A stretch of 34,195 nucleotides of DNA from a virus (Duplodnaviria > Heunggongvirae > Uroviricota > Caudoviricetes): positions 1 through 34,195 of the IMG/VR virus record IMGVR_UViG_2579778804_000007; one strand, given 5' to 3'. This document shows, one piece after another, positions 4,642 through 26,542 of the stretch; within the stretch, counting starts at the first letter, position 1, and every line of letters begins with the position of its first letter. Both the position numbers and the translations under genes were made by a program. The notes under the pieces were generated by a model that was not told the origin of the DNA, ran no database searches, and saw nothing but the letters and a program-made list of their open reading frames with translations.

Positions 4642-5238
4642 TCAGCCTGCGTGATGATCCGGCGAAGGGGATTCAGGCCAGACAATATCCGGCGCGTTGC
4701 CCGTGTCTGTCCGGCTCAGTAATACCCGGTATTTTTTCCACAGGGGAAGCAGGGCGCTTTCATCGTCGGTCGCCATATTTAAATCCACGGCATCCTGAAG
4801 GATGTTTATTGTATTTGTTGCCTCCTGTATTAATTTCCGTTTTTTATTCTCTGCCTCGCTTACCCGGTAAGCCTGTTCTGCCGCTTCATCCTTAACCCAT
4901 GATGAACCGTCCCAGCGGCAGAACTCCCCGTCCGGTTTTATCATGGTCACGTTTTCCGGTAACGGGCCCGGCTCAGTAATCAGTAAGGCGCTTCCCGACT
5001 CCAGACGCCAGACGGTTTTACCCCGGTGATCTTCCATGAGGTGCCAGGTGTTTTCATCCTCATCAAAGATAGCCACGTGTCCTTCAGGAATGTCAGGCGG
5101 GGCAATGTCCGTTGAGTGCGCAGGCAGTCCGGTATGCGGAGGGATCCATGCATCGCCTTCGCCGATAAATTCATTTGTTCCGGCTGACAGGTTGTAGATT
5201 TTAATTGTCTGCGGGTGTTCGCTCATTTTAAAGGTCAT
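4642..5238 (-). CDS. Tail fibre assembly protein (Tfa / P2 gpG-like)
   Basis: 198 aa; C-terminal [18 protein letters not shown] motif typical of Tfa chaperones; directly after the tail fibre gene. Confidence 0.75.
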
Positions 5239-7280
5239 TATGCAAGCCTCACGATGTAGTTAAATGCGATGTTTTTAACGGTGTTTTCGGCATTACCGGT
5301 GGGGTTAATGGTCAGGCCGTGACCATGTGAACCCAGTGCGATCGTGTGGGCGTGTTCGCCAATGGCTACCGAATGTGTGTGCCCCGGAAGGTTTACTGTC
5401 AGGTTTGCTCCGGAACCCGGTCCGTATGCGGTCCAGTCGCCGCTGCCTTCCGGTGACGCGGTGGCGGTTCTCAGTGCTATGTTTGCAGAGCCTGAACCCG
5501 CGCTTCCTGTTGTTTTTGTGCCGTAATTGAAGGATGAGGTCGTTTTCGTGCCAAGGTTAGTGTTTGAGACGCTCCCCCCGTGGGTGTGGGATTTGATACC
5601 GTCCTGCTCCTGTGACAATACCGCACGACCGCTGGCGGGTTTCCCCTTGATTGTCCAGCCGCGCATATCCGGGATGCGACCGTTCGGATAGGCTTTTGCC
5701 AGCAGGGGGTATTGCGCTTTATCGAATGTCTGCCCCACCATGATGGCGTAACCGTCAGGCGGGGTGTCTGACGGCCACGGAAAAGGAATACCAGCCGGTA
5801 ATGCCTCAGTTGCAGGCAGTGCGCCGATGTCCTGTGGTGTGGGTTTGTTTTTATCCGTGTAAGTGCGGTACCAGATGGGTTTTCTTCCCCGATCCAGTAT
5901 CACCCCGGTAAATTGTGCCCGGTGTTCTTTTGTGGTCGGATCTGAATCTTCCAGCCCGGTGGTGATCCTGACTATTCCGCCGATGAGTTCGCCAAACACT
6001 TCAATCAGGCAGCCACCCAGGCAGATATCGCCATACCCCGTGTCAGTAAGCACGCTGTGCTGTGACAGTGAAATATTGGCCCTTAATACCCAGCTCCCCG
6101 TTCTGAATGCACCGCGCTCATTCAGCCATTCCACGAACTGTTCTGTTGTCCAGCGTTGCCCTGCTTTACCCACGTATCCGTCAGCATCATAAACCCGGGG
6201 AGCACCGATGTTGATAATAAACAATTCCTTGTTGGGGATGTCCTCACCATTGCGGTTTTTCGCAAGCCGACCATCGGCGTTGTCCATGGCGATCTTTATA
6301 GCCTTTGGCGTGGCTGCCTGTGTCTCTGATGTACTGGTGGTGGCGCTGCTTAACTGTGTGAATCCCTTTTCTTTCAGTGTTGCGTCCGGGTGGTTGCGTG
6401 ACTTCTCGTGTTTTTTCAGAGCGTCCAGACTGCGGCGCTCCTCCGGGGTTCCTGTGGGACGAAGGTCGGTTACAGTGCCTTCTGCGTTGATGTCCGCAAG
6501 GGCTGTGACATAATGCTGAATACCGTTTTCCTGGTAATCTTTCAGCGAATCGGTCACCGTGATTTTGTGCTGAACCTCCCATTCACTGGTGAGCGTGCCG
6601 GTCCAGCATACATCCAGCCAGAGGCGGGCTGGACGGCGGGGGATACTGACGGGCTGGCTGACTGCCAGTTCGGCGCGTAAGCCCTGTACGTAGCCGTAAC
6701 CCTTATTCACCGTGTAGGTGTTGCCGCTTCTGGTGATCAGCCAGCCGTCACCGAAGAATGCAGCGTTACCGTAAATATCGATGTTTTCGCGGCGCTGGCG
6801 TTCGTCCATGGATGCCAGGCGTGCCGTGAAGTCTATCTGCCAGGTCTGCGCCGGGGTGGTGATACCTGTGGCTTCCTTCGCACCGCTGTACTCCATGAGC
6901 ATGGAACGGACCAGCACATTACCTTCGTTACCGTTGTGGGTTCTGATTTTTTTCTGTGTGGGGGCGTGAACAATCATGGCCAGCGTGCTGGTTGCTTTGC
7001 TGACCAGTCCCACCCAGTTAAATTCAAAATCACCCAGCTCTGCCCCCAGGGTGACCGAATAAACCACGGCATTCTCATTCACCACGCCGGTTTTACCAAC
7101 GGCCTGGCGGTGAACAATCTGATCTTCAGGCGGCAGGATTTCGTCGGGGGATACCGGTGTTTCCGGGTTGAGGTCCGGGACGTTTGCAAAAATAAACTCA
7201 TCCAGCACGACGGGGGTGCCTTCCGCCGCCTGCTGTGCCTTGAGCCGGATAAAGGCGCTGGTAATTACAGATTTCGCCAT
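5238..7280 (-). CDS. Tail fibre protein (P2 gpH-like), 680 aa
   Basis: Conserved fibre N-terminus ([40 protein letters not shown]), Gly/Ser/Thr-rich distal region with His-rich C-terminal repeats. Confidence 0.8.
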
Positions 7281-19360: not shown

Positions 19361-19526
19361 CATGGCCTCTTTTACGTGAAAATCTGAAGAACTCCGGTGA
19401 GTGTCGGGATTTTTACAGCGGGGGGCTACTGGCTGAATTCGGCTGTCTTCGGATAACACGGGATAGCCGAACACAGCCGAAATTTTCTGCCTGAATGCGG
19501 GCCGGATGCGCCGCCATAATGGGCGC
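19361..19526. promoter_or_regulatory. Divergent late promoter region between scaffold (minus) and terminase (plus) operons; contains dyad TTCGGCTGT...ACAGCCGAA and TGT-N10-ACA elements
   Basis: Intergenic space between divergent late operons, as at the P2 O/P promoters that Ogr activates; dyads seen directly. Confidence 0.4.
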
Positions 19527-21329
19527 ATGGCTAAATATTCTGACGAAATCAAAGAGGCGGCGCGATCGCTTTACCTGAAGCGGTGGCACCCCCGCGATAT
19601 TGCGGCGGAACTCGGTATTCCGCCGCGCACGGTTTACCACTGGTGTGATGTGGGGCAGTGGGCTACCCTGCTGCCCGCTGAATCCGTTGAGGACGTGATC
19701 GCCCGGCGTATTGATGTTCTGACCGGACGGGAGGGCAAGACAGAGTGTGAACTCGCCGAACTGCGTGAACTTATCGCGCAGCACGTGAAGATCATCGCCC
19801 AGAAAAACAAACATGCTGAAAGGATGGCGGAAATTGCCGCCACGCGTCCGGCAGTGTACGACGACGGTGTGGCGGCGACCAGCGGCGGGGGTGAAGGGAA
19901 AAAGCGGCGCTACCGGAAAAACGACGTTTCCGGGCTGACTGCTGAAATGCTGGATGAATGGGCGCGTAAAAATCTTTATGCCTATCAGCTGCACTGCCGC
20001 GAGAACCGGCACCGTGAGCGCCGTTTCATCCTCAAGAGCCGCCAGATAGGCATGACCTGGTATTTTGCATGGGAGGCGTTCGAAGATGCGGTGGTGACCG
20101 GTGATAACCAGATTTTCTTTTCTGCGTCACGGGTACAGGCGGAAATCTTTCGTGAATATATTATTGATTTCGCCCAGCAGTTCGGGATCACGCTCACGGG
20201 TAAGCATATCCGTCTGAGCAATGGTGCAATGCTGCGCTTCCTGTCCACCAATGCCAGTACCGCCCAGGGATTTAACGGCCACCTTTACGGCGATGAGGTG
20301 TTCTGGATCCCAAAATTCACGCGACTGCATGAAGTGGCCTCGGCAATGGCGACCCACGACAAATACCGCACGACGTACTTTTCCACACCCAGCGCCAAAA
20401 CCCACCAGGCTTATCTGGTCTGGAACGGTGACGACTGGCGCGGGGATGACCCGACGCGTCGTGCTGTTGAGTTTCCGAAAGAAAGCGCGATGCGTGTGGG
20501 CTGTGAATGCCCTGACGGGATCTGGCGCTACATTATCCGGCTGGAAGAGGCGGTGGCGGGTGGCCTGTCTGCACGGGTTGATATTGAACGTATCAGGAAC
20601 CTCTACAACCCGACCACCTATGCGATGCTGTACGGCTGCGAGTTTGTTGACAGCAAGGATGCGGTATTTAAGTTCTCCGAACTGGTCAGGTGCGAGGTGG
20701 AGATGGAGACGTGGGGTGACTACGATCCCACGGCGGCACGTCCGTTCGGCAATCGTGAGGTGTGGGCGGGCTTTGACCCGTCAAGGTCCGGGGATAATTC
20801 CACGTTTGTGATTGTGGCTCCGCCTGTCCATGAAGGCGAGCGGTTCCGTGTGCTCGCCGTCTGGCAGTGGCAGGGATTTAACTTCACCTGGCAGGCCGAT
20901 CAGATCCGCGAACTGATGCAGCGCTTTAACATTACCTATATCGGCATAGATATCACCGGTATCGGGAAAGGGGTGTTTGATATCGTCAGTCGCTTTGCGC
21001 CACGTGAGGCTAACGCCATTCTTTACAGCGTGGAGAGCAAAAACCGCCTGGTGATGAAAATGATAGACGTGGTGGCCCATAAGCGTATCGAGTGGGCGAA
21101 AGACGCCATTGATGAGGCCAGCCGTGAACGCACGGAGATCCCCGCGTCGTTCATGTCCATACGCCGCACCACCACAAAAAGCGGTAACGCGCTGACGTTC
21201 GTGGCGGAACGGTCGGATGTTACGGGGCATGCGGATGTGTTTTTTGCCATTTCGCACGCCGTGATTAATGAGCCTGTAGATTATGACTATGAACGCCCGT
21301 CCACATGGGCCTTCGGGAAAGCCGCATGA
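19506..21329 (+). CDS. P: Terminase large (ATPase) subunit (P2 gpP-like)
   Basis: 607 aa; terminase-like ATPase region; divergent from O and followed by portal with ATGA overlap. Alternative start at 19527. Confidence 0.85.
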   Translation: MRRHNGRMAKYSDEIKEAARSLYLKRWHPRDIAAELGIPPRTVYHWCDVGQWATLLPAESVEDVIARRIDVLTGREGKTECELAELRELIAQHVKIIAQKNKHAERMAEIAATRPAVYDDGVAATSGGGEGKKRRYRKNDVSGLTAEMLDEWARKNLYAYQLHCRENRHRERRFILKSRQIGMTWYFAWEAFEDAVVTGDNQIFFSASRVQAEIFREYIIDFAQQFGITLTGKHIRLSNGAMLRFLSTNASTAQGFNGHLYGDEVFWIPKFTRLHEVASAMATHDKYRTTYFSTPSAKTHQAYLVWNGDDWRGDDPTRRAVEFPKESAMRVGCECPDGIWRYIIRLEEAVAGGLSARVDIERIRNLYNPTTYAMLYGCEFVDSKDAVFKFSELVRCEVEMETWGDYDPTAARPFGNREVWAGFDPSRSGDNSTFVIVAPPVHEGERFRVLAVWQWQGFNFTWQADQIRELMQRFNITYIGIDITGIGKGVFDIVSRFAPREANAILYSVESKNRLVMKMIDVVAHKRIEWAKDAIDEASRERTEIPASFMSIRRTTTKSGNALTFVAERSDVTGHADVFFAISHAVINEPVDYDYERPSTWAFGKAA

Positions 21330-22378
21330 GCAAGAAACGCAGAAACAAAACGTCACGCGTGACGAAAAAAGCATTCACGCCCGCACGTGGCAGCACAATC
21401 ACCTTTGGCCAGCCGGAACCGGTGCTGACCACCGGCACGGACTACCATAACATCTGGTATGACAACGAACACAACCACTGGCAGCTGCCGATTAACCGCC
21501 TGGCACTGGCGCAGCTCCCGAACCTTAACGCCCAGCATGGTGGGGTGCTGTATGCCCGCCGTAACATGGTGGCGGGGGGCTATACCGGTGGTGGTCTCAC
21601 AACGGACCAGATGGAACAGGCGGTATTTGACTACCTGTTGTTCGGCGATCTCGCCCTGCTCAAGGTGCGTAACGTATTCGGCGACGTCGTGGCACTTGAG
21701 CCGCTTCCGTCGCTGTATCTCCGGCGCCGCAAAACCGGTGAGTTCGTGGTGCTTCAGGAAGGCCCCGCGCTGGTCTATACGCCGGAAGATATTATCTTTC
21801 TGCGGATGTATGATCCGCGTCAGCAAATTTACGGGCTGCCGGATTATATCGGTGGCATTCACTCGGCGCTGCTGAACAGCGAGGCCAGCCTTTTTCGTCG
21901 CCGTTACTACAACAACGGGGCACATATGGGTTTTTTGCTGTATACGAACGACCCGGGGATCACCACGGAGATGGAGGATGAGATCCGCGAGAAGGTGGCG
22001 GAGTCTAAGGGGCTGGGAAATTTCCGCAATCTGTACATCAACATCCCCAAAGGTTCGCCGGATGGGGTGAAAATTATTCCGATTGGTGAGGTGAGCGCCA
22101 AGGATGAATTTTCAAACATCAAGGGGATCAGCGCCCAGGATGTGTTTACGGCACACCGTTTTCCTGCCGGTCTTGCGGGGATCATCCCCACGAACGGGGC
22201 CACCATCCCTAACCCGGAGACGACGCGTGAAACGTACCGCAAGGATGAGGTGATACCGCTTCAGCGTAAAATCATGAACGCCGTGAACAGCGATCCCGAT
22301 ATACCGGAACACCTTTATCTTTGTTTTGATGTGGATGCCGGGCATGTGGCGGAAGAAAAAGCGGTGCCGGTCGGGTAA
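21326..22378 (+). CDS. Q: Portal protein (P2 gpQ-like)
   Basis: 350 aa; start overlaps the terminase stop (ATGA); P2-like position downstream of P. Confidence 0.8.
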   Translation: MSKKRRNKTSRVTKKAFTPARGSTITFGQPEPVLTTGTDYHNIWYDNEHNHWQLPINRLALAQLPNLNAQHGGVLYARRNMVAGGYTGGGLTTDQMEQAVFDYLLFGDLALLKVRNVFGDVVALEPLPSLYLRRRKTGEFVVLQEGPALVYTPEDIIFLRMYDPRQQIYGLPDYIGGIHSALLNSEASLFRRRYYNNGAHMGFLLYTNDPGITTEMEDEIREKVAESKGLGNFRNLYINIPKGSPDGVKIIPIGEVSAKDEFSNIKGISAQDVFTAHRFPAGLAGIIPTNGATIPNPETTRETYRKDEVIPLQRKIMNAVNSDPDIPEHLYLCFDVDAGHVAEEKAVPVG

Positions 22379-22415: not shown

Positions 22416-22679
22416 ATGCGGATTTTTAAAGCCCGGTGTCCGGACTGTGGCGCACCTGCTGTCATCCGGAAGACAGACTGGAAAACCCTTGAACTTGCGG
22501 ATCTTTACTGTGCATGCAGTGATGTCGAATGCGGGCACACCTTCGTCTGTACGATGACCTTTTCCCATACCCTCAGCCCCGGTGCCCGCTCCGGTCGCAA
22601 TATGGTGAAGTTCCTGGTGGATGCCATGCGCCCGGAAGATCGCCGGTATGCGCTTGAACTTCTGTCGCGGCGTTCCTGA
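22416..22679 (+). CDS. ogr: Ogr/Delta-family zinc-finger late-gene transcriptional activator
   Basis: CPDC-x18-YCACSDVEC cysteine pattern and downstream GHTFVCTMTF...SPG match the Ogr C-x2-C...C-x4-C finger; GGGAGG ribosome-binding site before ATG at 22416. Confidence 0.7.
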   Translation: MRIFKARCPDCGAPAVIRKTDWKTLELADLYCACSDVECGHTFVCTMTFSHTLSPGARSGRNMVKFLVDAMRPEDRRYALELLSRRS

Positions 22680-22706
22680 CGCGCTTCGCTTGTCTGCTGC
22701 TTCGCC

Positions 22707-22729
22707 GGGGCAAAAAGAATTTTTGCCCC
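22707..22729. terminator. Perfect palindromic hairpin GGGGCAAAAA-gaa-TTTTTGCCCC; bidirectional terminator between ogr and the minus-strand genes after gpA (alternatively part of cos)
   Basis: 10-bp perfect inverted repeat with 3-nt loop seen directly. Confidence 0.45.
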
Positions 22730-22773
22730 GACTCACCAGCTCCAGTGGTTCTTCATATCATTCGTTTTTTCTT

Positions 22774-22938
22774 TCAGCATACCATCCAGATAACCGCAAC
22801 GGTTGCCGCGTAAATTCTGGCGATAAAGCCCGGTGTGAAGTGTCGAAACGGGTTTTCCCACGTCAGGAATGCCATTAAAGCAATCCATGCAATGGTAAAA
22901 ATCAGCGCGCCCTTAACGGCGATAAACAGTTCGTTCAT
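22774..22938 (-). CDS. Small membrane protein, 54 aa, two predicted TM helices
   Basis: ORF MNELFIAVKGALIFTIAWIALMAFLTWENPFRHFTPGFIARIYAATVAVIWMVC with AAAGGAG 8 nt upstream; not in ORF track (under 60 aa); overlapping + strand track ORFs look spurious. Confidence 0.45.
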   Translation of the reverse strand: MNELFIAVKGALIFTIAWIALMAFLTWENPFRHFTPGFIARIYAATVAVIWMVC

Positions 22939-23011
22939 TGTGGTGTTCTCCTTTATGTGTCGGGCGAATAAACCGCGTTGCGGTGAAAAAATCAGGCGCG
23001 CCAGCGCAGCC

Positions 23012-23167
23012 TTACTGCTGACGGCGTTCCCGGAGTTCGGTCAGTGCCGCAAGTAAATTCTCCCACCACGTTTCTTCCACGACCGGGTTTTGTCGTGAAA
23101 GCAGCTGCTGTGCCGACTCAATCATTTTCTTCAGGTCTTTGTCGCTGATCCTCCTGATGTCGTTCAT
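23012..23167 (-). CDS. Small hypothetical protein, 51 aa
   Basis: Start chosen at MNDIRR with AAGGAG ribosome-binding site (track ORF 23012..23206). Confidence 0.4.
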   Translation of the reverse strand: MNDIRRISDKDLKKMIESAQQLLSRQNPVVEETWWENLLAALTELRERRQQ

Positions 23168-23214
23168 GGTGTGCTCCTTCAGTTTGCTGTTTCTGGTTAT
23201 GTTCATGGTCTTTG

Positions 23215-23619
23215 TTACCTGCGTGATTGCCTGTTGGCGGCCGAATGCACATAGCGGGCAATTGCCGCTTTTCGGTTAATCGATGCCAGTGTTCTGGTGA
23301 GTTCTGCGTTGTGTTTGTGTGCCTGCTCTTCGTGGTACTGCCGCATGATTTTTCCGGCAGGCGTGAGCGGCTCCGGCTCCCCGGGCGGACGGCGCGGACG
23401 AACGGCGACAAGCCAACTGCGGTTAGTGCTGTCCGGTCGTCCGTTGAGTATGTCGGTGATGATGGCCGTGGTGGTGCGATCGGGACTGACGACCGTGATT
23501 TCCAGCTCATCGCCAGGTTGTGGCCCCGTGGCAATGTTGTTCAGGGTCAGTAAGGGCGTGCGCTGGCGCATCAGTTCGTCAAAACGCTGTCGCTGCATGG
23601 CGCAATAAAAGCGGGTCAT
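23215..23619 (-). CDS. Hypothetical protein, 134 aa, immediately after gpA
   Basis: Start overlaps the gpA stop (coupled translation); no family recognised. Confidence 0.45.
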   Translation of the reverse strand: MTRFYCAMQRQRFDELMRQRTPLLTLNNIATGPQPGDELEITVVSPDRTTTAIITDILNGRPDSTNRSWLVAVRPRRPPGEPEPLTPAGKIMRQYHEEQAHKHNAELTRTLASINRKAAIARYVHSAANRQSRR

Positions 23620-26135
23620 TGTGGCGCCTCCGTATTCGGTGCGGGGGTGATATCAATGCGGCGGGTGCTGTCATTCCAGTACGCGGTGCGTCCGTCAGCC
23701 AGGCGCACGCGGGCACCGTGACGGACGGAAACGACGGCGCTTTCATGCAGCTGCACGCCCAGCGCATCAAGCTCACGGGTGATTTGTGCGGTGATGTGTG
23801 GCTCAGCGGTCAGAGCGATACTCACGCGAACGCCGCCAGCGGGCGCACTGATGCCGCCGTTTTTCACGGTTTCCGTGTCAGGTGGTGGGTTTTTCAGCTG
23901 CCTGGTGAGTTGTTTTCGCTCTGTGGGGGTCAGTGACCTTAACCATTCACCCAAATCACCTTCCGGCAGGGTAAGTCGCTGCTCCCTGCGTCCGTCCGGC
24001 TGCCTTTCTGGCGGGTCGTTTATGGTCAGATTCTGGTCAGGGGGACAGTTATTGCCACGAGTCCAAGGTGCGGCAAAGCCGCACTCAACGTCAAAACCCT
24101 CGTCCGTGCGGTCTTCGTTTTCCGGCTTACGTCTGACCAGTTTCCAGGTGTCCGGGTGGGTGCATATGGTGTAGCGCTCCCCGAGTGACGGGGCGCGGAC
24201 GCCGTAAATGCGTTGCGGGAATTCGCCGTAGTCGTTGGCCTCTTCGGCAGTTTCGTATGCGGTGCGGACCAGGTACGTGTTGCGGGGAATGAGCACACCA
24301 CCCTGGCGGGTGATATAGGTGGCAAAACATCCCACGTCGGCGGCGGCCAGTATGGCGTCAATGTCGTCATGGTCCAGACGCTGCGGGGCTGCCGGGTTAC
24401 GGGCCATCTGCCCGGCAAGGCGGCGGAGTTCGCGCCATACCTGGCGGGGCGGGATGCCGAAGAACTGGAACTGGTGGATGCGGTGAAGGCCTGCCCAGCC
24501 GATTGCGTTCTCCACGGTTTCGGCCATGGTTTTGCCTGATTCCTTATCGACGTAAGGTTTGCCGGTTTTCGGGTCATTCCCCATGAAGGCGCTGGCGTCC
24601 AGGTTCTTACCGATATAGGTCGCGATATAGCTTGTCGGTGTGCCTTTTGCCGGGTCGATTTTTTCGCATTTAAAACGCGGGGAGATATCATCACCCAGCT
24701 CTGCGCGGTCCTCCCTGATGGCGGCGTTGCGCATGATTTCAGTGATACGGGCTTCGTTTTCCGGGCTGGTGAATACCAGCATGTGCCAGTGCGGTGTACC
24801 GTCGTGGTGGGGCTCTACTGTGCGCACGCCGTACCAGCCCAGCCCGGCCTTGTTGATGGCCTTGCGGACGGCGGCGAAAAAGCGGTAAACCAGATAATCA
24901 CTGGCATCACGTACCGTTGCCCCGCAGTATTTCGGGTTCAGACTGCCGTCATCGTTCACGCTGTGAAAACGGGAAGGGGCTGTGACGGTGACGAAAAACG
25001 CCACGTCGCCGCGTGCTTCGGCGACCTGCTCCATTCCCCGGACGCAGGCCATCATCTCGTTACGGCGGTTACGCGGATTAGAGAGACCTGCCCAGTAGAT
25101 ATCCTCAAGGCTGAACCGTTCTCCCTCTTCGTTCTCGATGTCCCAGGCCTTCAGAAAATCGCGGGTGCGCTGGCGTTTTTCGCGCCAGTCCAGTAACGCT
25201 TCATGGCTGATATATACCGACGTCTTACGTGACACCAGGCCTGCGGCGCGTAACAGCTCTTCACGCCAGATGTCCCGGAGGTGTCTTAACTGACTGTTCC
25301 ACCATGTCGCACAGGAAAGGCGCATGACCGCACCCGGCACCTGTTCCGGGTCGGGGGCGGTGCGGCGGTCGGGCCTGATTTCCAGCGACGGCCAGCAGGG
25401 TGGCGTGATACCCAGTTTTAACGCCATGTGTGCCAGTGGCTGGTAGGTCAGTAACCAGGTGAACAGGTCATCGTCACCCCTGCCGGTCTTTTCGATGACC
25501 TCATCACATGCGCGCTCCAGTGCGGTGGAAAACGCGGTGGCGGTCAGGGTGGCAAGGCGCTGGATTTCGTCACGGCTCAGCTGCGGCAGCATAAGCAGTT
25601 CATCCAGCCGTTCGCGCGCGGCGGTGGCCTTAAAGGCCGGGGTGGCAAAGCGATCATTTACACGGGCGATACGTTTCAGGCGGGCACGCAGCCCGTGACG
25701 AACGAAGTTATCCGCCGCGTATGCGCTGTTGTTCTTAAGCCCTTCCCGGCGTGCGCTCTCCTGTTTGCGGCTCAGGCGTGCCAGGTCACGGATGAGCGGA
25801 CCGGCAAGAAACGGCGGCAGGGCGCGCAGCTCTGCCATGGCTTCAGATACCAGTGTGGGCGGATTCTCGTGTTTGTGCCGCGCCAGTTTTTCCAGTCTGA
25901 TCCGACGCTCTTCGTCGTGGTGAAGATGCGAATTAATTCGCTTGCCTTCGTCTGTGTTTGTCTGGAAGTCGACGGTCTCTTCATCCAGTCTTGCATCAAT
26001 GCGAATGTCTTCGTTGATGTAGCTCTGAATGGCCTGGCGCAATGCAGTTGGTTGCGCTCTGCCGAATGTTTCAGGATCGATAACCGGTAGCGGGGCGTTC
26101 CACGGGTACGCCAGTTGTGCATTATGGTCGCTCAT
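23616..26135 (-). CDS. A: Replication initiation endonuclease (P2 gpA family, rolling-circle HUH nuclease)
   Basis: About 840 aa; HUH motif in HHDGTPHWHMLVF; ATG at 26135 with GGGGAG ribosome-binding site (track starts at GTG 26144). Confidence 0.85.
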   Translation of the reverse strand: MSDHNAQLAYPWNAPLPVIDPETFGRAQPTALRQAIQSYINEDIRIDARLDEETVDFQTNTDEGKRINSHLHHDEERRIRLEKLARHKHENPPTLVSEAMAELRALPPFLAGPLIRDLARLSRKQESARREGLKNNSAYAADNFVRHGLRARLKRIARVNDRFATPAFKATAARERLDELLMLPQLSRDEIQRLATLTATAFSTALERACDEVIEKTGRGDDDLFTWLLTYQPLAHMALKLGITPPCWPSLEIRPDRRTAPDPEQVPGAVMRLSCATWWNSQLRHLRDIWREELLRAAGLVSRKTSVYISHEALLDWREKRQRTRDFLKAWDIENEEGERFSLEDIYWAGLSNPRNRRNEMMACVRGMEQVAEARGDVAFFVTVTAPSRFHSVNDDGSLNPKYCGATVRDASDYLVYRFFAAVRKAINKAGLGWYGVRTVEPHHDGTPHWHMLVFTSPENEARITEIMRNAAIREDRAELGDDISPRFKCEKIDPAKGTPTSYIATYIGKNLDASAFMGNDPKTGKPYVDKESGKTMAETVENAIGWAGLHRIHQFQFFGIPPRQVWRELRRLAGQMARNPAAPQRLDHDDIDAILAAADVGCFATYITRQGGVLIPRNTYLVRTAYETAEEANDYGEFPQRIYGVRAPSLGERYTICTHPDTWKLVRRKPENEDRTDEGFDVECGFAAPWTRGNNCPPDQNLTINDPPERQPDGRREQRLTLPEGDLGEWLRSLTPTERKQLTRQLKNPPPDTETVKNGGISAPAGGVRVSIALTAEPHITAQITRELDALGVQLHESAVVSVRHGARVRLADGRTAYWNDSTRRIDITPAPNTEAPQ

Positions 26136-26542
26136 GCGTCGCACTCCCCGGCAGTTGCCGCCTGAAACGCCGCGCGGTACAGCACGAGAAGGCGCTGGTA
26201 TTCACCGATAAAGTCTTCTGCGGTGTATATACCTTTCACGGCCACGCTGTGGTTTGTCATTTCCAGCACAAGCGTCATCTCTGACGACGACCAGCTGATG
26301 GCGGTGCTGTCGGTTCCGTTGATGTGAAATAAACCAAAACCATCACCTTTCACGTCCACGCGGTAACGGTCGTCAACGGTGAAGGAGAAATCCCCGTATG
26401 TGGTGACGCGTCTGGCGGCCTGTTTACAGGCGCGGCGGTAATAGTCGTGCCAGTCGTTGAGGCGGGAAGCCAGCCGGGGCTCCACTGCCCACATCCAGTT
26501 AAAAAAATCCTGAATATCTGAAAGTCCCTTAACGTTCTTCAT
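26132..26542 (-). CDS. Hypothetical early protein, 136 aa
   Basis: Overlaps gpA start by a few nt (operon coupling); no family recognised. Confidence 0.5.
   Translation of the reverse strand: MKNVKGLSDIQDFFNWMWAVEPRLASRLNDWHDYYRRACKQAARRVTTYGDFSFTVDDRYRVDVKGDGFGLFHINGTDSTAISWSSSEMTLVLEMTNHSVAVKGIYTAEDFIGEYQRLLVLYRAAFQAATAGECDA

Follow-up and report, generated by a model that had tools for sequence, protein, structure and literature searches.

Immediately behind a small zinc-finger gene of the Ogr/Delta type, the E. coli prophage analysed here carries a sharply bounded island of about 67 bp, which we consider to be, with fair probability, its cos site, the ogr-like gene closing the late operon that encodes the terminase and the portal. 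The terminase would make a staggered cut around GCCGGGG, on the left shoulder of a perfect palindrome with 11-bp arms, this cut would yield virion ends with a 7-nt cohesive overhang, and the palindrome and two direct GCTTCGC repeats would probably form part of the sequence recognised by the terminase. Several features argue for a cos site at this place: (i) two adapter-marked DNA ends, at 22703 and 22711 and in complementary geometry, lie inside the island; (ii) the island lies in non-coding DNA, with portal and ogr on one side and the replication genes on the other, where P2 and 186 have their cos; (iii) it is kept as a discrete block amid flanks that are unrelated at the DNA level, even where 525 bp of inserted DNA lie between it and the portal gene; (iv) the cargo genes vary from its right edge onwards, as they do at the published hotspot of the P2-like phages (PMC9122126); and (v) a compensatory change preserves its palindrome. 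All positions refer to the window, by which we mean the whole stretch of 34,195 nucleotides that was analysed.

The window comes out as E. coli O22:H8 strain 154 (chromosome record NZ_CP067426.1), with 100% identity over the 2.4 kb compared, and its prophage sits between ppa and ytfP. It is a mosaic member of the P2 family (Peduoviridae): its structural and packaging genes follow the layout of HP1, K139 and SW3, and its replication side is kin to that of the P88-like phages. The relevant genes and sites are the following:

Left of the terminase gene and divergent from it, minus strand: scaffold gene, gpO
19506..21329, plus strand: terminase large subunit, gpP-like, with the Pfam domains Terminase_5, Terminase_6N and Terminase_6C (RefSeq start, 19527)
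21305..22378, plus strand: portal protein, gpQ-like, Pfam Phage_portal and PHROG 68, E 1e-119 (RefSeq start, 21326)
22416..22679, plus strand, ATG at 22416 and TGA at 22679: zinc-finger protein of the Ogr/Delta family, 87 aa, PF04606
22677..22743: conserved island of about 67 bp, the proposed cos region; its left edge includes the ogr stop codon, and variable cargo starts from its right edge
22774..23619, minus strand: three small ORFs (54, 64 and 134 aa) of unknown function between the island and the replication gene
23616..26144, minus strand: gpA-type rolling-circle replication endonuclease, Pfam Phage_GPA, E 7e-108
About 24044..24094, minus strand, inside the gpA gene: P2-type ori, located by alignment to 186

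The two sides of this genome have different relatives. The large terminase subunit is 76% identical to that of the Salmonella phage SW3, 47% to that of K139, 39% to that of 186 and 35% to those of the P88-like phages, and the portal behaves in the same way (76% for SW3, 47% for K139, 31% for the P88-like phages). Compared with the P88-like phages, gpM, gpP and gpQ show 25%, 35% and 31% identity, respectively. The replication endonuclease, by contrast, is 53% identical to its P88-like counterparts and only 34–37% to those of SW3 and 186. The small ORFs beside the island, which match PHROGs 14672 and 14984 (both families of unknown function), share 82–90% identity with other E. coli prophages.

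Some further observations concern the source genome and the left part of the window. NZ_CP067426.1 has three copies of the island: the window locus is at about 4.80 Mb, and a second one, at 3,541,977-3,545,945, belongs to a prophage of the same type that has another cargo gene by the island and is 99.3% identical to contig L212. At 5238..7280 we read one intact ORF of 680 aa, where RefSeq (after conversion of the coordinates) has two partial tail-fibre pseudogenes; it may be a chimeric tail fibre that was split by the annotation pipeline. Near the start of the window, TTCGGCTGA occurs three times on the minus strand (512-520, 658-666 and 981-989), in a region to which RefSeq assigns two Hok/Gef genes.

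The preliminary description had placed an Ogr-type zinc-finger gene on the plus strand after the portal, and this assignment was confirmed by the coordinates, by the cysteine pattern and by the profile search. The ORF, which begins 37 nt past the portal stop codon (22378), matches PF04606 (Ogr_Delta) from one end of the model to the other (positions 1-47 of 47), with 56.5 bits and an E value of 2.5e-15 (gathering cut-off, 26.3), and PHROG 603, 'transcriptional regulator', with an E value of 2e-29. Its cysteines are arranged as C8-x2-C11-x22-C34-x4-C39, and none of the four varies when the protein is aligned with 186 B and P4 Delta. Thus, the protein has the single C-x2-C-x22-C-x4-C finger, the small size and the aligned Cys, Phe and Pro positions of P2 Ogr, 186 B and P4 Delta; however, it is only 25% identical to 186 B, and it differs from these three proteins in a C-terminal extension of 34 residues that is common to SW3, ESSI-2 and K139 orf13. 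By family resemblance it is presumed to be the late-gene activator. RefSeq already annotates it (WP_028985696.1, 'ogr/Delta-like zinc finger family protein'), and both the gene, an ordinary member of its family, and its placement are already known.

The position of this gene was initially described as a departure from P2, in which ogr sits next to gene D. The gene does follow the portal rather than gene D, but family-wide this is not unusual. Proteins 45–60% identical to it are encoded by SW3, SW5 and SI7, ESSI-2 and its relatives, the Yersinia phage vB_YenM_324, K139 (orf13), Kappa, PV94 and phiO18P. In SW3 and K139, the two phages that we inspected closely, the order is the same (portal, ogr-like gene, convergent genes, replication gene); the portal-then-ogr arrangement recurs in SI7, ESSI-2 and phiO18P, and it has already been published for K139 and Smhb1 (PMC8537503). 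In K139, Smhb1, SW3/SI7, ESSI-2 and phiO18P a leftward scaffold gene is followed by rightward terminase, portal and ogr-like genes, and then by convergent genes of the replication side.

No sigma-70-like promoter was found ahead of the ogr-like gene, and only 37 nt separate it from the portal; it is most simply understood as closing the late operon of terminase and portal. Late transcription of terminase, portal and ogr would then reinforce its own activator, in a positive feedback. The P2 ogr gene also lies at the end of a late operon and is read through from it. A hairpin masking the ribosome-binding site of the gene was considered and discarded, the predicted structure being no better than those of shuffled sequences (z = 0.2). 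As regards the targets of the putative activator, the TGT-N12-ACA dyad of P2-type late promoters occurs 8 times in the window (expected number, 6.75), but never in the divergent intergenic region between scaffold and terminase; the binding site of this Ogr subfamily may differ from the P2 type. The same region holds a candidate operator, to which the late activator may bind:

19438..19481: inverted repeat, TTCGGCTGTCTTCGGATA / TAGCCGAACACAGCCGAA, with arms of 18 nt that are 89% complementary, in the divergent scaffold/terminase promoter region

What distinguishes the prophage from these relatives is what follows the ogr-like gene. In about 70 relatives from IMG/VR, whose Ogr proteins are 53–60% identical to that of the window, there is a Rho-independent terminator within a few nucleotides of the ogr stop codon; SW3 has AAGCCCGC-ataa-GCGGGCTTTTTT there, and the K139 record annotates a terminator at this point. 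This slot, therefore, normally holds a canonical terminator, straight after the ogr-like gene, whereas the window has the conserved island with a palindrome that lacks the U-tract. Among the loci that were fetched, only four (L131-L134, with Ogr proteins 99% identical to that of the window) have the palindrome element in place of the terminator. The elements that make up the island are:

22683..22689 and 22699..22705, plus strand: direct repeat of GCTTCGC at a spacing of 16 nt, its second copy spanning the proposed cut
22704..22710: GCCGGGG, the 7 nt between the two adapter-marked ends, proposed as the core of the cohesive end (cosN)
22706..22730: perfect palindrome CGGGGCAAAAA-gaa-TTTTTGCCCCG, with 11-bp arms, which include a flanking C and G, and a 3-nt loop

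The perfect 10-bp stem reported in the preliminary description (GGGGCAAAAA-gaa-TTTTTGCCCC, 22707..22729) is real and extends to 11 bp with its flanking C and G. It is not a chance occurrence, since the window has three perfect stems of at least 10 bp where Markov shuffles predict 0.42. The other two, at 62-86 and 118-147, are near the start of the window, and the second of them (GCCCGCAG...CTGCGGGC, followed by a T-run) resembles an ordinary terminator. In the P88-type variant, GGGGCATAAA-aaa-TTTATGCCCC, a compensatory double change (A>T on one arm and T>A on the other) leaves the palindrome intact. A few relatives (L016, L024 and L021/L131/L132) have GGCGAAGCAGC to the right of the palindrome, which complements the left flank exactly, so that the arms reach 21 bp; this sequence includes an inverted third copy of GCTTCGC. 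Such variants look like the product of quasi-palindrome correction by template switching, which suggests that the hairpin forms in vivo.

Could the palindrome be only a transcription stop, or an RNA-stabilising hairpin, between the convergent late and early operons, with cos elsewhere, for example near attP? Transcription does converge on it from both sides, the relatives mentioned above have their terminators at exactly this slot, HP1 and PV94 have their cos near attP, and the RNA hairpin would be stable: the 37-nt segment that holds it (22700-22736) folds with −17 kcal/mol, z = −4 relative to shuffles. Nevertheless, we regard this explanation as unlikely. The bidirectional terminator that had been suggested is not supported, and the palindrome is not a canonical terminator, because the stem is not followed by a T-run on either strand (the sequences after it are GACTCACC on the plus strand and GGCGAAGC on the minus strand, and the stem itself contains the A and T runs); a scan with the terminator consensus does not call it either. 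In addition, about 30 nt to the left of the stem and about 13 nt to its right are near-identical across unrelated flanks, which a terminator would not need, and the adapter-marked DNA ends lie inside the element. Returning to the cos reading, the element could serve both as cos and as a barrier between the convergent operons.

The extent of the island became apparent when the 2.4 kb around the site was compared by megablast with the phage records: the only match was at 22674..22746 of the window. The island is 91–94% identical (about 93%) in P88, in other E. coli phages of the Xuanwuvirus type and in the Citrobacter phage phiSM; in the P88-like phages the stop codon of the portal gene marks its start, and no alignment extends into the flanks. 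Its right boundary was set by divergence among the window-type prophages, in which the sequence is constant up to ...CCAGCTC (22743) and the cargo differs beyond. Column-wise diversity along the island was left out, being confounded by indels in the loop. Of the 5426 complete E. coli genomes, 1111 contain the island, at 1246 places in all. In the contexts examined, it always accompanies a P2-like prophage, either directly beside the portal gene or with an inserted gene of 525 bp in between; no satellite bearing the island was seen among these contexts. It is nearly restricted to E. coli, with hits in 2 of about 185,000 species-representative genomes. An exact E. coli-type island was found in a 226-kb contig labelled 'Vagococcus sp. 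WN89Y' (L302, NZ_JBQPOM010000071.1), probably as a result of contamination or of a mislabelled assembly.

The island lies in the only non-coding gap between portal/ogr and the replication module. The preliminary description had remarked that the palindrome is where P2 has cos, next to Q; the element does sit at that position, and a cargo hotspot adjoins it. Among near-identical prophages (L292-L301), the segment between the island and the replication gene contains an ORF of 54 aa, one of 72 aa or larger inserts. This variation resembles the cos-proximal cargo and defence hotspot that has been described between gpA and gpQ in the P2-like phages (Rousset et al., PMC9122126).

The closest indication of physical DNA ends comes from two viral contigs whose tips are fused to sequencing adapter within the island. 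IMGVR_UViG_3300018478_000024 (16.7 kb), which runs leftwards through ogr, portal and terminase and onward, ends with ...TGACGCGCTTCGCTTGTCTGCTGCTTC (...CTGCTTC) at 22703, followed by AGATCGGAAGAGCGTCGTGTAGGGAAAGAGTG. IMGVR_UViG_3300018479_000124 (10.0 kb) starts with ...GCTCTTCCGATCT followed by CAAAAAGAATTTTTGCCCC, at 22711 (in longer form, ...ACACGACGCTCTTCCGATCT followed by CAAAAAGAATTTTTGCCCCGACTCACC); it runs through a replication gene of 842 aa to the integrase and is 99% identical to the window-type E. coli prophages. The fused sequence is in both cases the Illumina TruSeq universal adapter, in complementary geometry. These were the only matches to the two junction patterns (half of the island plus adapter, with up to 30 nt allowed between them) among 2.9 million viral contigs. 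They come from sibling samples (3300018478 and 3300018479, whose libraries may be of DNA or of RNA), and neither has a partner contig from the same sample. An adapter on a contig tip would mark a fixed physical end, and two tips 7 nt apart fit a staggered cos cut; we infer that the ends at 22703 and 22711 are made by the terminase. The left arm of the palindrome overlaps the proposed cut site, and the sequence around it has a partial dyad symmetry centred on 22707 (CT..TT..CC.GG..AA..AG). The cosN of phage lambda is likewise partly symmetric. According to the PhageTerm paper (PMC5557969), 5' overhangs are filled in and 3' overhangs trimmed off during end repair, and termini that do not overlap therefore indicate 3' cohesive ends; by this standard logic, the overhang would provisionally be assigned 3' polarity.

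It could be argued that these junctions are artefacts of assembly or library preparation, and that the island was conserved only through a recent horizontal spread, with no function. The junctions are indeed in only two contigs, palindromes can disturb assembly, and one contig (L027) breaks inside the palindrome and has no adapter. We found neither further adapter junctions at the end of the right arm or with an upstream start nor contig ends at the island in 76 metagenome loci. However, two independent junctions, 7 nt apart, in complementary orientation and with no microhomology between adapter and genome at either of them, are hard to reconcile with this explanation, and more than 1000 genomes have kept the island despite insertions and differing flanks. 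We consider an artefact highly improbable.

In comparison with the established cos sites of the family, the proposed one shows similarities and differences. P2, 186 and P4 have a 5' cohesive end of 19 nt, GGCGAGGCGGGGAAAGCAC, within a conserved region of 55 bp. As in these phages, the island comes shortly after the portal gene, a hotspot of variable cargo lies alongside, there is a GCGCGC-like motif on the portal side, and as in P2, where it reads CCGCCC-N8-GGGCGG, an inverted repeat abuts the cut. In contrast, the stagger would be of 7 rather than 19 nt, and the polarity is apparently different, the ends of P2 and PV94 being 5' overhangs (16 nt in PV94; PMC3986222) and the non-overlapping ends seen here implying 3' overhangs. 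In the cos junctions of P2, P4 and 186 (L007-L010), an inverted repeat abuts the cohesive end in all three (CCGCCCCGtgaaGCGGGCGG in P2 and CCGACCCAtaaaGTGGGCAGG in 186, with changes on both arms), and a hairpin-like element by the cut may be a general feature of the cos sites of the P2 family. The GCTTCGC copies are possible terminase-binding repeats.

The suggestion that the palindrome marks a cos candidate has thus gained the adapter-fused ends, the position and the hotspot, but not significant similarity to the cos of P2, 186 and P4. Local alignments to these cos sequences were no better than those of shuffled sequences, and the same was true of the P2-type core region (GGCGWGGCGGGGA...). 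Within the interval from portal to replication gene, GGTGAGTCGGGG (minus strand, 22726..22737) is the only sequence that comes within two mismatches (10/12) of GGCGWGGCGGGG, the P2-family core, and its orientation is that of P2; as support for cos, this is weak evidence. Other candidates were discarded. The P2 cohesive end has no match in the window with up to 3 mismatches; a match of 13/19 that can be picked out by eye is not evidence, as alignments to the circularised P2, 186 and P4 junctions, in both orientations, stayed at shuffle level; and a P2-cos-like motif of SW3 (CTTTCCCGCCCTCAGC) is absent from the window and lies in a methylase cargo shared with SEN4 and SEN5, in which it is away from the ends.

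HP1 and PV94, both of them studied experimentally, offer a different comparison. They share the structural gene order of the window and have a related terminase, 40–47% identical. The cohesive end of HP1 is, like the one proposed here, short: it measures 7 nt, and the HP1 record annotates a cosL of 9 nt. In contrast to the island, to which they show no sequence similarity, the cos sites of these two phages lie beside attP and not beside the portal (PMC2771037), and this speaks against cos at the position that we propose. Literature searches on the ends of Xuanwuvirus, Irrigatiovirus and P88 returned nothing, and no published termini came to light for the lineage of the window either.

Further points against a cos site come from the terminases. 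The two lineages that bear the island have terminase subunits only 25–35% identical, and conservation between them is no higher in the DNA-binding N-terminal part of gpP than in the rest of the protein. SW3, whose gpP is the nearest relative, has no island and an ordinary terminator in its place. Thus, the expected co-variation of cos with terminase was not seen: the P88-like phages have the island and SW3, at 76% identity, does not. Because gpA is 53% identical between the window and the P88-like phages, compared with 25–35% for the packaging proteins, and because SW3 is devoid of the island, it is the replication-side module, and not the terminase, that the island accompanies, which is odd for a cos site.

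This association raises the possibility that the island is a cis site of the P88-like replication module, such as a sequence bound by an early protein or a hotspot of recombination, and that the ends arise from structure-dependent breakage or nicking at the palindrome. Besides the distribution of the island, the high identity of the neighbouring small ORFs to those of other E. coli prophages and the variants with 21-bp arms, with the hairpin in vivo that they suggest, are in line with it. There are, however, several observations that it does not accommodate. The island is not the origin of rolling-circle replication, a role that we considered and rejected, as the conserved ori motif and its hairpin lie inside gpA, as they do in P2 and 186, with an alignment to 186 that scores 36 against 18.7 ± 2.1 for shuffles. 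Nor is it a parC-type site, since the phage of the window is devoid of ParMR genes. The ends are asymmetric about the centre of the palindrome and 7 nt apart, as for a staggered enzymatic cut, and Rfam returned only sub-threshold chance matches for palindrome and island, with no known RNA family. We consider it quite improbable that the island belongs to replication in this way. With regard to the origin itself, a hairpin precedes its motif (...CTTGGACTCGTGGCAATAACTGT), with a stem unlike that of 186 but with the pairable arrangement kept.

If the island is the cos site of the prophage, the P88-like phages probably use the same sequence as their cos. We therefore put forward, tentatively and as a possibility rather than an expectation, that one cos of about 67 bp, with a stagger of 7 nt that possibly protrudes 3', serves two peduovirus lineages, one rare and HP1/SW3-like and the other very common and P88-like, in spite of the divergence of their terminase subunits.

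The practical gain is a candidate cos, with cut positions at the nucleotide level, for the P88-like prophages, which are present in about one fifth of the complete E. coli genomes, as well as for the rarer lineage of the window. Should the cos be shared, divergent prophages that reside in the same cell would be compatible in packaging, raising the question of cross-packaging, and entire late and early modules would be exchanged at cos as their junction, with a bearing on why the hotspot of cargo and defence genes adjoins it. And if one cos is cut by two very different terminases, this would bear on how the specificity of packaging is encoded in the P2 family.
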